Below, one piece after another: positions 8,783 through 60,112 of a stretch of DNA of 64,000 nucleotides. The translations under genes were made by a program, and so were the position numbers. Under the pieces are notes generated by a model. The model worked only from the letters and a program-made list of their open reading frames with translations, searched no databases and was not told where the DNA came from. Source of the DNA: a virus (Duplodnaviria; Caudoviricetes). Every line of letters starts with the position of its first letter. Position 1 is the first letter of the stretch. The stretch lies in the IMG/VR virus record IMGVR_UViG_3300014204_007706, positions 7,584-71,583 of that record; one strand, 5' to 3'.

Positions 8783-9207
8783 CCGTTCCTCACTTTTATT
8801 TTAGCCCAGAGTGATTTAACTTCTGGTAAAGCTTCTGGGTCTTTCATTATGGCTTCAAAACGCTGACGCGTTTCAGGACTTACGTTGCTCCTAATAGACT
8901 CGTACTCTTGTCCTAATTTGGTCAGCTCATCAAGAATACGGATACCGCCGTTTATTACAGATTCTGCTTTAGTAAAATCATCATAAGTTGCGTCTATGTA
9001 TTTTTTGACTTTGAACCCGCGGGCTTTAAAATGTTCCAGACGTTTTCTAAGGTCCGTTTCGGTTTTTAACTTTCCGGACATAACCTTAAGAGTACCCATC
9101 ACAGAGGCCAAGTCTTTTTTGTAGCGGCCGTCTGTTTGCCTCAAAACTTCCGTAAACAGATATTCAATGCTATCAAAATCTTTGCGCAATTTATCGGTAA
9201 TTAGCAC
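8779..9207 (-). CDS. Hypothetical helical protein
   Basis: 142-aa ORF, GGAGG upstream, 4-nt overlap with the giant gene. Confidence 0.65.
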   Translation of the reverse strand: MLITDKLRKDFDSIEYLFTEVLRQTDGRYKKDLASVMGTLKVMSGKLKTETDLRKRLEHFKARGFKVKKYIDATYDDFTKAESVINGGIRILDELTKLGQEYESIRSNVSPETRQRFEAIMKDPEALPEVKSLWAKIKVRNG

Positions 9208-10313: not shown

Positions 10314-11486
10314 TTATTCCTTATCTTCTTCAGATGCTTCTGATACGTCCGGAACGTTCGCACTTACTGGTACTTGTGCGTCTGTCACAGGCGTAGTAGC
10401 TTTAGCTTCTGCACTAAGAACGTCGCGTGCAAATTTTACTGCTGCGTCGTATGCTACAGAGTCATTACGAAACGCATCCATCAAGTTTTCCAAACCCTGG
10501 TATTTCTGGCTGGCATAGGTGTAAAATGCGCCGGCGCGTACAATATGACCGGTAGAAAGCAAGAAGTTTACAACATCGTAAATCCTGTCCAGGCCTTTAT
10601 TGTACTCTATCCTAAATGTAGCGTTTGTGAAATTTGCCCCACCGCGGTGCTTAGTAATCTGGGCGTCAATCTCTACTCCCTTAACCGTGTCTCCATCTTT
10701 TAAAAGCTTAGATGAGTTAGCCTTAAGGAACTTTACCCTTGAGTGATAAATGTGTTTTAAGTTTCTGCCCCCAGGTGTACGCAGCATAGGTACGTAGCCG
10801 CCTATGACGTCGCGAACCTGGTTGATAACTATCAGGGAGACATTGTTGCGCTTAAGAACTTTCGAAATACGGGGGATAATTCTTTGGAGAACTCCTGGTA
10901 CTGAGGCGTACTTTGGGGCGCCCATTTCTGAGCCCATTACGTCAAGCGTCGTAACATTTGCAATACTGTCTATCACAACCATATTGACAATGTGTGACTC
11001 TGCATATGTCTCAATTATCTTAAACATGTCCTCAACAACATTGCAATCTGACACCATCAGTCGGTCTGTTTGAATCCCAAGATTTACTGCTCTCTTAGGG
11101 TCATATGAGGACTCTGTGTCAAATAATAAACATCTGCCACCGTTCTTTTGCATCTCGGCGACGGCTAACTGCGATACCAGTGACTTACCGGTGAATTCCT
11201 CACCGTAAAGCTCTGTAATACGTCCCGCAGGTAAACCACCGGACAAAGCACGGTCAAGCGCGAGTATCCCTGTAGAGTACAAAGGTATTGCTAAGTCTTG
11301 GGATCCTGTTGCTGAGTCGTCGTCTAGTACTGGGAGGGTTTTTGGATCAATTATCTTTTCAAGTTTCTTATTTGCTTCTTCCATTTTCTTACGCAAATCT
11401 TCATCTACAGATTTTGTTACCTGTGCCCGTTGTTCTGGTGCAGAGGGTAAACTTGTGCTATGTGTTGTTTTTTTCTTAGCTGCCAT
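10314..11486 (-). CDS. recA: RecA/UvsX-like recombinase
   Basis: STGILALDRALSGGLPAGRITELYG, Walker A GEEFTGKS, VVIDSIA, INQVR, TPGGRNLKH. Confidence 0.95.
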   Translation of the reverse strand: MAAKKKTTHSTSLPSAPEQRAQVTKSVDEDLRKKMEEANKKLEKIIDPKTLPVLDDDSATGSQDLAIPLYSTGILALDRALSGGLPAGRITELYGEEFTGKSLVSQLAVAEMQKNGGRCLLFDTESSYDPKRAVNLGIQTDRLMVSDCNVVEDMFKIIETYAESHIVNMVVIDSIANVTTLDVMGSEMGAPKYASVPGVLQRIIPRISKVLKRNNVSLIVINQVRDVIGGYVPMLRTPGGRNLKHIYHSRVKFLKANSSKLLKDGDTVKGVEIDAQITKHRGGANFTNATFRIEYNKGLDRIYDVVNFLLSTGHIVRAGAFYTYASQKYQGLENLMDAFRNDSVAYDAAVKFARDVLSAEAKATTPVTDAQVPVSANVPDVSEASEEDKE

Positions 11487-34055: not shown

Positions 34056-34084
34056 TTGACAAATGTAGTCCTTCCTGCTATACT
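34056..34084 (+). promoter_or_regulatory. Sigma-70-type promoter for the tRNA-Arg/RNase P transcript
   Basis: TTGACA-17nt-TATACT. Confidence 0.8.
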
Positions 34085-34095
34085 GTTTCCAATAA

Positions 34096-34171
34096 GCGCC
34101 TTTAGCCTAACGGATCAGGCGGCGGGCTACGGACTCGCAAAAGGTGGGTTCAACTCCTCCAAGGCGCGCCA
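34096..34171 (+). tRNA. tRNA-Arg(ACG)
   Basis: Acceptor GCGCCTT/AAGGCGC, anticodon arm GCGGG-CTACGGA-CTCGC, encoded CCA. Confidence 0.9.
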
Positions 34172-34212
34172 ATAACAATACTGAGGAGACTTATGGGCGT
34201 AAGAAGGTAATA

Positions 34213-34661
34213 AGGATATCCAAGCAAGTGCGGCTAAGCCAGCATAGTTAGTTACCGGGGAAGCGTAATCCTTAGGACAAATAACTAGCGTGTACGCAGT
34301 GTTGGCTTAGCCGAGGAAAATCCCGGCATATTGGGGCGCTGTACCGGAGTTAATTCCGGACGAGTAATCGATGAATAGGGGACAGAGACGAGGCGTAGCA
34401 AAGCTTTAGCTGAAAAATACGCAGCGTGAGTAGCTGCGTTAGGGCTTCCTCAACCCAAGGCTATAGTGAATCTGGTAGTGGGCAGTCCGCAGTTAAGAGC
34501 TAGGGCATATGAAACGGCCAGACCTGAGCTACTAAAATGAGACGACCAACCTCTACAGCATGCAAGACGAAATAGGCGGACTATGACGTGACCCCACCGA
34601 GTCCGCGGGTACGTCGCTTAGATTGATACTTGCATAAACAGAACCGGGTTTATGGATACCT
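34213..34661 (+). ncRNA. rnpB: RNase P RNA (bacterial type-A-like, extended P3, P18 absent)
   Basis: GAGGAAAATCCCGG (34313-26) pairs with ACAGAACCGGGTTTA (34638-52) as P4; P2 GCAAGT/ACTTGC; 14-bp P3; GCAAGACGAAATAGG, L15 GGT and P15 GACG/CGTC; P6 TGGGG/CCCCA. Confidence 0.9.
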
Positions 34662-34677
34662 GAAAATAAGGAATACT

Positions 34678-35037
34678 ATGGCAGCAAAATGTACGCTTTG
34701 TGGTAATGACGCAGAGTATGGAAACATGTGCGCTGAATGTATGCAGGGATTCAGTTCTGTGTCCTCTGTGCGAAAGGCGGAGATTATGAACGAAGACCTA
34801 AAAAAGAACGACACAAAGAAGCTGCAAAATTGTCTAAGCTGCGATAAGCTTACGACAGATAACAAAATTTGTAAGGCATGTGTCGCGGAATATCTCCCGA
34901 AGCTCAAGGAGTTTATTGATAAACATCCGGAACTGGATAACTATATGCGGGTTAATTTTCACAAGGAGCTGCCTATACCGCGCAGGGCCTTGTATGCTCT
35001 TGATCAGGCGGGATTGATTAAGATTCGAACTAAATAA
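34678..35037 (+). CDS. Double Zn-ribbon protein resembling YvyF-like HTH proteins
   Basis: CTLC/CAEC then NCLSCDK...ICKAC...LKEFIDKHP...GLIKIR; start moved to ATG 34678. Confidence 0.55.
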   Translation: MAAKCTLCGNDAEYGNMCAECMQGFSSVSSVRKAEIMNEDLKKNDTKKLQNCLSCDKLTTDNKICKACVAEYLPKLKEFIDKHPELDNYMRVNFHKELPIPRRALYALDQAGLIKIRTK

Positions 35038-35039
35038 GT

Positions 35040-35117
35040 GTTGGTTGTAGCTCAGTTGGTTAGAGCGCCAGGATGTGGCCCTGGAGGCCGCCGGTTCAAG
35101 TCCGGTCAGCCAACCCA
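35040..35117 (+). tRNA. tRNA-His(GTG)
   Basis: G-1 and C73, anticodon arm CCAGG-ATGTGGC-CCTGG, CCA. Confidence 0.92.
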
Positions 35118-35120
35118 AAT

Positions 35121-35195
35121 TCCCGCGTAGTTTATGTGGTAAAATGCATCCTTGGTAAGGATGAGAATCGGATTCAAACGCCGACGTGGGATCCA
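35121..35195 (+). tRNA. tRNA-Thr(GGT), atypical T-arm
   Basis: TCCCGCG/CGTGGGA; CATCC-TTGGTAA-GGATG; A53-G61 mismatch. Confidence 0.8.
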
Positions 35196-35200
35196 TAAGG

Positions 35201-35275
35201 GCCGCTTTGGTGTATGGAGTAACACGCGACTTTCGTAAAGTCGAGAACCGGATGCAAACGCCGGCAGCGGCTCCA
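35201..35275 (+). tRNA. tRNA-Thr(CGT), atypical T-arm
   Basis: CGACT-TTCGTAA-AGTCG; T-loop TGCAAAC; CCA. Confidence 0.78.
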
Positions 35276-35290
35276 ATATAAATTTACACG

Positions 35291-35330
35291 TGTATATAAG
35301 TTATAGTCACGTGACTATAAGTTATATACA
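35291..35330. repeat. 40-bp near-perfect loopless palindrome
   Basis: TGTATATAA-G-TTATAGTCACGTGACTATAA-G-TTATATACA. Confidence 0.85.
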
Positions 35331-35336
35331 GCAGAT

Positions 35337-35412
35337 TCCGGCGTATCTCAATTAGTAGAGAACCTGCCTTGTAAGCAGGGGGTTGTCGGTGCAAGTCCGA
35401 CCGCCGGATCCA
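35337..35412 (+). tRNA. tRNA-Thr(TGT)
   Basis: TCCGGCG/CGCCGGA; CCTGC-CTTGTAA-GCAGG; T-loop TGCAAGT. Confidence 0.88.
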
Positions 35413-37349: not shown

Positions 37350-37598
37350 ATGGGCAAAAAAGAAAGTTATACATGTGATATATGTGGAAAGCCTTGTACT
37401 TTAGACGACCACATAGATGACCTTCAGGTAATATTTACGACTGAACAGACAGAGGGACGCTCAGTTGAACCACACTTATGCAGCGTAGACCTATACGTGT
37501 GTGACGCATGTAAAGAGCATCTATTGGAAGGAAACTATCTGTTTGCATCCGGAGCCCAGGGACATAATACCTACCACTTCCCTAAGAAAAAGAAATGA
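37350..37598 (+). CDS. Small Zn-finger hypothetical protein
   Basis: CDICG and CDAC; GAGGTG RBS. Confidence 0.6.
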   Translation: MGKKESYTCDICGKPCTLDDHIDDLQVIFTTEQTEGRSVEPHLCSVDLYVCDACKEHLLEGNYLFASGAQGHNTYHFPKKKK

Positions 37599-37605
37599 GG
37601 TAGAC

Positions 37606-37866
37606 ATGCTTGACGGCGTTGAGGTTCTGGGAGGCATTGCCGCGGTACTTACTACCATTGAGGCAATACCACAAGTTATTAAATCTATACGTACGCGTAG
37701 TACCCGGGATATCTCTTTAGGATCCATTATGGTGGTTATATCCGGATTACTCTGCTGGACTGCCTATGGGGTAATAAAGAAAGACCTATGGATTGTTCTC
37801 TCTACAGGAATTGCCACGTTATTTTACATAACTTTACTTGTTGTGAAACTGGCATTTGAGAAATAA
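37606..37866 (+). CDS. SemiSWEET/PQ-loop (MtN3) membrane transporter
   Basis: Three hydrophobic helices, IPQVIKSIRTRSTRDIS, CWTAYG; start moved to ATG 37606. Confidence 0.85.
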   Translation: MLDGVEVLGGIAAVLTTIEAIPQVIKSIRTRSTRDISLGSIMVVISGLLCWTAYGVIKKDLWIVLSTGIATLFYITLLVVKLAFEK

Positions 37867-39332: not shown

Positions 39333-39444
39333 AGTAATAAAACCGCACTTTGAGATAGAGAATGCTTGCTGGTGGATTCTGGGTGGCGCCGGTAGGGCAT
39401 TTTCAATGTTGCACAAAAAGAGCTTACGTAAAATTAAATTATAG
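39229..39444 (+). CDS. Hypothetical protein
   Basis: 71-aa ORF whose TAG ends on G1 of tRNA-Leu(CAA); overlaps previous ORF. Confidence 0.4.
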   Translation: MGKVILYVGKEQKVLHGTWKTKTGALLTGEALKSEVIKPHFEIENACWWILGGAGRAFSMLHKKSLRKIKL

Positions 39445-39528
39445 CGAGTGTGGTGGAATTGGCAGACACAGTGGTCTCAAAAGCCACAGGGGCAACCCAT
39501 GGGGGTTCAAGTCCCTCCACTCGCACCA
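39444..39528 (+). tRNA. tRNA-Leu(CAA)
   Basis: GTGGT-CTCAAAA-GCCAC, long variable arm, CCA. Confidence 0.92.
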
Positions 39529-39541
39529 AAAAGGAGTTAAG

Positions 39542-40102
39542 ATGTTTTCTGAAATATCAAGAAACAAAAAGACAGACTTTATTTATAACTCAAACTTAAT
39601 TGAAGAAATAGGGTTTGACAAAAAAGAATATAAAGACTGGGACTCATCAAGCTACCCGGAAATATCCGGGCATGCTATGGCGACAGACTACATGTTACAG
39701 AACTGTAGTACACAACTAAGTGAATATACCATTTTGGTTATGCATGGCATGCTTACACGTGGCTTGGTGCCTAGTAAATATCGTGGCGCATATAGAGATT
39801 GTATGGTATATATTGGCGGTCATGAAGGTCTGCCTCCTGTAGGTATAAAGCCAGCGATGTCACAGCTTATACGACATGCTGCTGTAGCAAAAACTGAACA
39901 GGACTGCTGGAATATACACCACGAGTTCGAGGTCATTCATCCGTTTATTGACGGTAATGGCAGGACCGGAAGGTTAATACTTAACTGGATGCTTTTGCAT
40001 AATAAGCGTCCGTTTAAGATCATAGATATCAAAGATAGATTTACGTACTATGACCAGATAGAGGAATATCGGCGCGAGCAACTGCGCCGGAAGTATGAAT
40101 AG
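39542..40102 (+). CDS. Fic/Doc-domain protein
   Basis: Canonical HPFIDGNGRTGR; FIYNSNLIE; start moved to ATG 39542 (AAGGAG RBS). Confidence 0.9.
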   Translation: MFSEISRNKKTDFIYNSNLIEEIGFDKKEYKDWDSSSYPEISGHAMATDYMLQNCSTQLSEYTILVMHGMLTRGLVPSKYRGAYRDCMVYIGGHEGLPPVGIKPAMSQLIRHAAVAKTEQDCWNIHHEFEVIHPFIDGNGRTGRLILNWMLLHNKRPFKIIDIKDRFTYYDQIEEYRREQLRRKYE

Positions 40103-49319: not shown

Positions 49320-49393
49320 GTCGGGTTCGTTTAAAAGCAGGACAATGGGTTTTCAATCCATGAACAGCGGAGCGTTACCGCTACCCGACACCA
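49320..49393 (+). tRNA. tRNA-Glu(TTC), non-canonical T-loop AGCGTTA
   Basis: GTCGGGT/ACCCGAC; ATGGG-TTTTCAA-TCCAT; AGCGG/CCGCT T-stem; CCA. Confidence 0.82.
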
Positions 49394-49578: not shown

Positions 49579-50196
49579 ATGAAGGAAAAAGTAATGCCGG
49601 ATACGTCCGGAAAACTAAGAATGCACGTCGAAGTAGAATGCACCTACTGCAGAAAGTTATTTTGGAGACCTAAGCGGTTCTTAGATAGACACAAGAGGGC
49701 TTATTGTTCACCAAAGTGCGCTCACGCAGCACAGCAACAGCGTGTCGTTGTAACGTGTTATCACTGCGGAAAGAGTTTTACAAGAACTCAAACCAAGCTT
49801 AAGGGTAGCCGTAGTGGATTTTATTTTTGCTCTCGTGGGTGTAAAGACGCGTCACAGCGTGTGGAAAACAATGGACATAATTGGAACCCGCGTTATGTTA
49901 AGAATACGGGTAGGTACACATACCGTACCATTGCTTGGAGAAATTACCCACATAAATGTGCTTGTTGCGACTACGCTGAGCACGAAGAGGGGCTGGAAGT
50001 TCACCACATTGATGGTAATAGAAGGAACAACAAATTAGAAAACTTAATCATTTTGTGCGCTCTTTGCCACAGACTTGTAACAAATGGCGTTTATACTATA
50101 ATAGATAGAAAAATGGTTAAAAATACTGAAGAGTTAAAGTCTTTGACAAGATGTTTAGACGCTTATGATAAGATTACGGGCCGCGGGACTGCATAG
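49579..50196 (+). CDS. HNH endonuclease with N-terminal Zn-finger repeats
   Basis: CxxC...YCSxxC repeats; CACC...LEVHHIDGNRRNNKLENLIILCALCH. Confidence 0.88.
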   Translation: MKEKVMPDTSGKLRMHVEVECTYCRKLFWRPKRFLDRHKRAYCSPKCAHAAQQQRVVVTCYHCGKSFTRTQTKLKGSRSGFYFCSRGCKDASQRVENNGHNWNPRYVKNTGRYTYRTIAWRNYPHKCACCDYAEHEEGLEVHHIDGNRRNNKLENLIILCALCHRLVTNGVYTIIDRKMVKNTEELKSLTRCLDAYDKITGRGTA

Positions 50197-50256
50197 GGTG
50201 GTCATCTCACTTGCAATGAGAAAGTCAGCCGGGAGCGTTACCCGGGCGGTCCACCA
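50178..50256 (+). tRNA. tRNA-Ala(TGC), non-canonical T-loop AGCGTTA
   Basis: G3-U70 in GGGCCGC/GCGGTCC; TCTCA-CTTGCAA-TGAGA; A73, CCA. Confidence 0.82.
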
Positions 50257-50274
50257 AATATAGAAGGGAGATTT

Positions 50275-59960: not shown

Positions 59961-60036
59961 GGGCATGTAACTCATCAGCTAGAGTACCTCACTTTTAATG
60001 AGGGAGTAGAGAGGGCGGCACTCTCCATGCCTACCA
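59961..60036 (+). tRNA. tRNA-Lys(TTT), non-canonical T-loop GGCGGCA
   Basis: GGGCATG/CATGCCT; CCTCA-CTTTTAA-TGAGG; GAGAG/CTCTC T-stem. Confidence 0.82.
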
Positions 60037-60037
60037 A

Positions 60038-60112
60038 GGATCTGTAGCTCAACAGTGGAGCAAGGCACTCATAATGCCGAGGTCGCAGGGGCAGCACCTG
60101 CCGGATCCACCA
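60038..60112 (+). tRNA. tRNA-Met/Ile2(CAT), non-canonical T-loop GGCAGCA
   Basis: GGATCTG/CGGATCC; loop CTCATAA; GCAGG/CCTGC T-stem. Confidence 0.8.

Follow-up and report, generated by a model that had tools for sequence, protein, structure and literature searches.

A tRNA-Arg(ACG) gene, a 449-nt RNA gene, and an ORF for a double zinc-ribbon protein follow one another downstream of a putative promoter (Table 1) in the stretch of viral DNA analyzed here (the window; 64,000 nucleotides). The window comes from an IMG/VR virus record, a linear contig of 71,583 bases with a completeness of about 48%, which also carries genes for a tail fibre, DNA polymerase PolA, UvsX, DnaB, NrdD, and GroEL. The sigma-70 promoter that the preliminary description had placed ahead of tRNA-Arg was supported by its consensus matches, and our analysis recovered the same set of 18 tRNAs plus a tmRNA in the window, with all 18 tRNAs encoding CCA and several lying only 1-4 nt apart. 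No terminator was predicted between the RNA gene and a His/Thr/Thr tRNA cluster (35041-35275), nor on the same strand up to 35800. The mini-ORF between tRNA-Arg and the RNA gene contains two AGA/AGG arginine codons and may be there by chance. Two tRNAs, tRNA-Thr(CGT) at 35200 and tRNA-Ala near 50182, were missed by the defaults of ARAGORN and Rfam. An AT-rich spacer of 61 nt (35276-35336) between two Thr tRNAs holds a long near-perfect palindrome, and genes for a SemiSWEET-like transporter (37501-37866) and a Fic-domain protein (39362-40102) are located among the tRNAs.

Table 1. Features of the RNase P RNA locus and of two copies in other phage records (positions of the window unless an accession is given).
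Feature	Position	Strand	Details
Sigma-70-type promoter (putative)	34056..34084	+	TTGACA-17 nt-TATACT, extended -10 TG; 11/12 consensus matches
tRNA-Arg(ACG)	34096..34171	+	Encoded CCA; first gene of predicted transcript
Mini-ORF MGVRR	34193..34210	+	5 codons; strong Shine-Dalgarno site; in 41-nt spacer, ends 2 nt before P1
RNase P RNA gene	34213..34661	+	449 nt; type-A-derived, without P13/P14/P18; RF00010 match
P1 and P2, 5' strands	34213..34229	+	P1 pairs with 34653-34661; P2 (34224-34229) pairs with 34628-34633
P3	34231..34313	+	83 nt, branched: 15-bp base, side hairpin, distal hairpin; fold compared with shuffles
CR-I and P4 5' strand	34313..34327	+	Bulged U (E. coli U69) kept at 34321
P5, P6, P7, P8, P9, P10, P11, 5' strands	34327..34381	+	P6 pairs with 34592-34596; P9 with GNRA loop GUAA
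CR-II (J11/12 T-loop strand)	34382..34392	+	ACAGAGACGAG; near-invariant in phage family
P12 extension	34393..34537	+	145 nt; 5-bp closing stem (34395-34399 with 34528-34532); constrained fold
Second CR-III / P11 3' strand copy	34510..34520	+	Inside P12 extension; motif search
CR-III T-loop strand (UGAGA), P11 3' strand, then P10, P7, P5 3' strands, J5/15	34538..34565	+	AA bulge in P11
P15-P16-P17 arm	34566..34615	+	L15 GGU at 34608-34610; P15 4 bp, P16 7 bp, P17 weak (2-3 bp)
J15/2, CR-IV, P2 3' strand, CR-V, P4 3' strand	34616..34652	+	No P18
Double zinc-ribbon ORF	34678..35037	+	119 aa; directly 3' of RNA
A3Wally RNase P RNA	L186:1317-1537 = MZ150783.1 93852-94072		RF00010, 72 bits, E 6.6e-21
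MaAM05 RNase P RNA	L185:1462-1861 = MW495066.1, about 115284-115683

RNase P RNA is the ribozyme that trims the 5' ends of new tRNAs. A covariance search with an E-value threshold matched the whole RNaseP_bact_a model (RF00010) at 34277-34667 (73.9 bits; E 1.8e-22), and class A was the best clan match of the interval 34213-34661, which is the only RNase P RNA copy on the contig. On the evidence of this match and of its core helices, all of which pair, the interval is a genuine RNase P RNA conforming to the universal structural definition, as had been proposed from the letters. The covariance-model check suggested at that stage succeeded by E-value, although the score lies under the Rfam gathering score for RF00010 (100 bits), which is why the gene is missed by default annotation: a default Rfam scan of the window at the gathering threshold listed the tRNAs and the tmRNA, with RNase P RNA absent from the results. 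When an HMM was built on the relatives and the query was left out, it detected the query RNA at E 3e-15. The query is a long branch with at most 63% identity to any relative, and it scores 51-61 bits, comparable to canonical RNAs, so that it is not placed in the phage subfamily by sequence score alone; in the tree, it falls outside a supported clade of canonical RNAs, its placement being otherwise not settled. Searches with blastn gave no match for the whole RNA among GenBank phages and none for its core among plasmids.

The conserved helices were recovered one after another, with P1 (9 bp, one bulge), P2 (6 bp), P5 (3 bp, with an A-C mismatch at its end), P6 (5 bp), P7 (6 bp), and P8 (6 bp) paired, together with P9, P10, and a P11 carrying an AA bulge. 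P4 consists of AAA-U-CCCGG (34318-34326) against CCGGG-UUU (34644-34651), in which all eight pairs are Watson-Crick; the window contains a single instance of this spaced pattern, and 100 shuffles gave none. Where E. coli has G68-C358 and G72-C355, the query has A34320-U34649 and C34324-G34646, respectively, and the bulged U of P4 (E. coli U69), a metal-binding position, is retained. P3 is far more stable than shuffled sequences (z -4.81; 0/200 shuffles), and the position of P18 holds 0 nt compared with 24 nt in the model, since P15 runs via GCU straight into UAGAU. The compensated P4 variant, the pairing of P1, P2, P5, P6, and P15 along with the L15 GGU, the long P3, and the missing P18, all put forward in the preliminary description, are thus confirmed by our helix-by-helix inspection. 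By sequence, the catalytic domain reads as intact, with the P4 bulged U, an A248 equivalent at 34564 in J5/15, CR-IV, CR-V, and the L15 GGU, which would pair with the RCCA at the tRNA 3' end. The altered P4 base should be tolerated because, in the Geobacillus ribozyme structure, the metal contact of the corresponding G is made through the phosphate (G51 OP2) (PMC13254310). With a model substrate, the kobs of the E. coli RNA fell by a factor of more than 3000 when P18 was deleted (PMC11143913), suggesting that the activity of the phage RNA alone may be weak and that dependence on a protein or on a compensating strut is likely.

As read from the sequence, the specificity (S) domain is of a reduced type lacking P13/P14, with both T-loop strands and P7-P11 retained. 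The covariance-model alignment had read this region as P13 followed by a 99-nt P14; this reading was rejected, as the P13-like hairpin of the model sits within an insertion in P12. The P12 insertion was preferred because the query 3' strand UGAGACGACCAA matches P13/P14-less relatives exactly, being identical in 5 of 11 RNase P RNAs on viral contigs that combine CR-II (ACAGWGACGA), a P12 of about 5-65 nt, and a CR-III leading straight to P11 with no P13/P14, and the query CR-III likewise joins P11 directly. Both the loss of P13/P14 and the 145-nt P12 insertion had been overlooked in the preliminary description. The closing stem of the extension had a pair probability of 0.95 in the constrained fold, and its interior is predicted to be multibranched with a 7-bp hairpin (34419-34439), the inner fold being no better than shuffles (z 0.45). 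With both strands of the 64 kb searched, the CR-III/P11 strand motif had two occurrences, each of them inside this RNA (0/2000 shuffles), and the second copy at 34510 had a profile p value of 0.0035. The insert also aligned to the long P12 of the relative L096 (score 40; 0/1000 shuffles). A CR-II-like strand at 34463-34470 was suggestive without being significant. No Rfam family matched the insert, inspection excluded a tRNA or a hammerhead, and no relative sharing the insert was found. The insertion is most likely a tolerated peripheral extension arising from duplication or recombination between RNase P RNA genes, and a relic of such an event is the simplest account of the second CR-III strand; the insertion may also act as a strut replacing the lost P13/P14/P18 contacts. 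It seems improbable that the duplicated CR-III and the CR-II-like strand form a second interdigitated T-loop module, giving a two-headed specificity domain that would take over host RnpA and prefer tandem or elbow-rewired phage pre-tRNAs to those of the host. Two other phage RNase P RNAs, L079:7622-7915 (-) and L096:1089-1348, have long P12 extensions of about 140 and 65 nt, respectively, and that of L096 resembles a three-hairpin cloverleaf.

Covariation was assessed in an alignment of the query with 11 phage relatives (12 RNAs; 27 pairs tested). Base pairing held in 96.9% of cells and double-sided change was seen at 21 of the 27 pairs, values reached in 0/500 shuffles. Slid controls were 24-43% paired, a comparison that leans in favour of the structure because the query and the known RNase P fold served as the basis for drawing it; the double-sided changes are independent of how the structure was drawn. 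P4 was 100% paired across the 12 sequences, and at E. coli position 68 the relatives have a G-C or C-G pair and only the query has A-U. The private changes of the query in P4, P5, and P15 are all compensated on both strands, which largely refutes the view that the gene is a decaying, captured bacterial rnpB without present function. Its score below the Rfam cutoff, long branch, P5 end mismatch, weak P17, and insertion would fit such a relic, but together with the compensation, the intact putative promoter and the stability of P3 make this very improbable. The A-U pair in P4 recurs in a chromosomal RNase P RNA (L142) situated among purM, murJ, and lepA, which also has the ACAGWGACGA...UGAAACGG S-domain in common with the query and was judged to be CPR-like without a taxonomic test. 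Pattern scans for the P4 A-U variant gave a single RNA from metagenomes (L142/L143) and no match among viral contigs or GTDB genomes; as the patterns require a fixed spacing, these are undercounts. A scan of viral contigs with the 5' P4 pattern gave 19 matches, all of them chance. In a 318-kb provirus record, an RNase P RNA (L161:6204-6438, minus strand) carries two further P4 swaps (AGG-U-CGGGA versus UCCCG-CCU) at positions that are invariant in the other relatives.

The location of the gene on a phage, as originally stated, was corroborated by the phage genes on the contig and by an even GC content across the RNA region (0.41-0.48), with no sign of chimerism. Being a single linear metagenomic contig, it could in principle include a piece of host chromosome joined during assembly, but this is extremely unlikely: besides the even GC content and the tail fibre, UvsX, PolA, and DnaB genes, the flanks consist of phage tRNAs and orphan ORFs, and the block is syntenic with a related phage. 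Furthermore, the S-domain signature is present on viral contigs and was found in 0/401 sampled genomes of the Niallia phylum (Bacillota) and 0/301 of the Bacteroidales phylum (Bacteroidota), that is, in 0/702 altogether. In the related contig (L153), the genes from the SNF2 helicase through GroEL and patatin keep the same order, their proteins being 35-66% identical, but the corresponding interval has neither tRNAs nor an RNase P RNA. The tRNAs and the RNA are thus a gain or loss specific to a lineage, set within a phage backbone, and the lineage can do without the RNA, at least in this position. In place of the tRNA region of the query, L153:9061-11455 carries a TROVE (Ro60) gene and an RNase T-family gene, and its non-coding gaps (8915-9060 and 10516-10696) had no Rfam match. 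Searches with DnaB or the flanking ORFs found no close relatives of the phage. The earlier statement that rnpA is missing also holds, as a search for RnpA (PF00825) found none on the 71.6-kb contig, none in two complete phage genomes with the same RNA subfamily, and none in phage A3Wally. A phage-encoded protein partner is possible for the query, since about half of its genome is missing.

Among known RNase P RNAs, the query is closest in layout to bacterial type A (RF00010; E. coli M1 RNA/rnpB and Thermotoga maritima P RNA), with which it has in common P1-P11, the P4 and P6 pseudoknots, P15-P17, CR-I to CR-V, the P4 bulged U, the A248 equivalent, the L15 GGU, and the P9 GNRA loop. In contrast to that type, it resides on a phage, lacks P13, P14, and P18 (whose GNRA loop docks on P8), has A-U for G68-C358, an 83-nt branched P3, and a P12 extension with a duplicated CR-III strand, and scores 73.9 bits against a cutoff of 100 bits. 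The P6 pseudoknot and P16/P17 are class A features; class B (RF00011) does not fit, as there is no room for P5.1, P10.1, or P15.1 and both P6 and P16 are present, and neither does the minimal type T (Pyrobaculum-like), as P7-P12 and both T-loop strands are present. The individual losses of P13, P14, and P18 are known from CPR bacteria and archaea (PMC8172020, PMC4919922). CPR (Patescibacteria) RNAs also fall below Rfam thresholds, have lost P13/P14/P18, and bear large helix extensions, but they are essential genes of the cells themselves and about two-thirds lack the GGU motif (Lui et al. 2021, PMC8172020), whereas the query is viral and keeps the GGU and P16/P17. Archaeal type A RNAs likewise have a type A core without P13/P14 and P18 and with a long P12, and they need several archaeal proteins (PMC4919922); unlike them, the query gives its best score with the model for bacterial class A, its conserved regions are bacterial, and the contig around it is that of a bacteriophage, in which a putative sigma-70 promoter and a tmRNA are also present. 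The theta ribozymes of gut phages are also phage-encoded and tied to tRNA genes and their maturation, but they are small self-cleaving ribozymes of the HDV-like kind that process 3' trailers in cis (Kienbeck et al. 2024, PMC10879173), while the query is of the large, trans-acting 5' maturation type; phage RNase P is not reported in that paper.

Both pre-tRNAs and pre-tmRNA need RNase P for their 5' ends. Our reading of the sequence is that the RNA probably borrows the RnpA of the host and matures the CCA-encoded pre-tRNAs and the tmRNA of the phage. Early transcription by the host sigma-70 RNA polymerase would yield a polycistron shared with tRNA-Arg, from which host nucleases would release the RNA; once folded, it would bind host RnpA, work like bacterial M1 RNA, and cleave the 5' leaders of phage pre-tRNAs and pre-tmRNA. 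The phage might thereby gain extra processing capacity or a substitute for host RNase P RNA that disappears in the course of takeover or of host defence. RnpA proteins can replace one another across species (PMC4919922), and the encoding of CCA by every tRNA of the window is in line with the retained GGU. An RNase P-like fold could instead serve as a decoy that sequesters host RnpA or pre-tRNAs and thereby suppresses tRNA maturation in the host while itself cleaving little, as the strong promoter, the loss of three stabilizing helices, and the absence of an encoded protein partner on the contig might suggest. However, every catalytic and substrate-binding residue is retained in the query as well as in the family, and the phage needs RNase P activity for its 18 tRNAs and tmRNA, making a decoy quite unlikely.

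Another possibility is a specialist enzyme whose remodelled S-domain, perhaps helped by the second T-loop strand serving as an additional reader of the elbow, prefers phage substrates poorly handled by host RNase P, such as A18/G55 tRNAs, tRNA mimics, and polycistronic RNAs. Five tRNAs in the window carry G55 (at 35200-35412, 49320-49393, 50182-50258, and 59961-60112), mostly with A18, the variant change being G18/U55 to A18/G55, and the significant second CR-III strand and the alignment of the insert to the L096 P12 could be read in the same direction. However, these tRNAs keep C56, the base on which the S-domain T-loops stack, the CR-II-like partner strand within the insert does not reach significance, and no association between S-domain type and G55 tRNAs was found across 15 loci, relatives of the same S-domain type ranging from 9/20 to 0/14 G55 tRNAs. 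We therefore regard a specialist as unlikely, and the suggested tuning to elbow-variant tRNAs, which these data do not support, is not needed to explain the RNA. As for CCA, phages with minimal RNase P RNAs (L053, L073, L086, L102, L110, and L186) have tRNAs mostly without an encoded CCA (0-2 of 3-12), and carriers of P13/P14-less RNAs (the window, L020, L048, L058, L119, L157, L163, and L169) mostly encode it (e.g., 33/33 and 26/27), with L160 and L162 as exceptions in a small, non-independent sample.

RNase P RNA is regarded as an essential gene of cells and organelles. It has also been used as a completeness check for bacterial genomes (PMC8172020). A generic pattern scan of viral contigs yielded, among the 118 matches listed, at least 26 complete RNase P RNAs, at least 17 of which lie in arrays of three or more tRNAs, so that the initial view of this RNA as rare in viruses did not stand. 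Some of the complete RNAs beyond the array set probably lie in host DNA that adjoins a provirus, and some of the tRNA arrays with an RNase P RNA may belong to other mobile elements. What appears particular to the query copy is the P4 A-U pair, the branched P3, and the P12 insert with its duplicated T-loop strand. No report of an RNase P RNA gene in a phage or virus was found in the open-access literature, most subscription papers being outside this scope. Huge-phage translation-gene surveys list tRNAs and tmRNA and do not mention RNase P in their main text (PMC7162821, PMC7824862); the same applies to the main text of a survey of viral structured RNAs, and viruses are not mentioned in the P Finder paper. 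If such ribozymes form a recurring pool in viruses, they add a missing step to phage control of translation, and they represent natural experiments on the dispensable parts of the ribozyme: in the query copy, P13/P14/P18 were lost, a near-invariant P4 pair was changed, and 145 nt were gained. A direct test is feasible in cultured Microbacterium foliorum phages, which carry an unannotated copy: in A3Wally, a minimal RNA of 221 nt lies exactly between two tRNA genes, and it is common to Zooman, Big4, and a fourth related phage at 91-92%. The record of Microcystis phage MaAM05 also contains an unannotated RNase P RNA, which could be host DNA in the record; it is a fully canonical class A RNA (251.8 bits) near mtgA, with no tRNA nearby.
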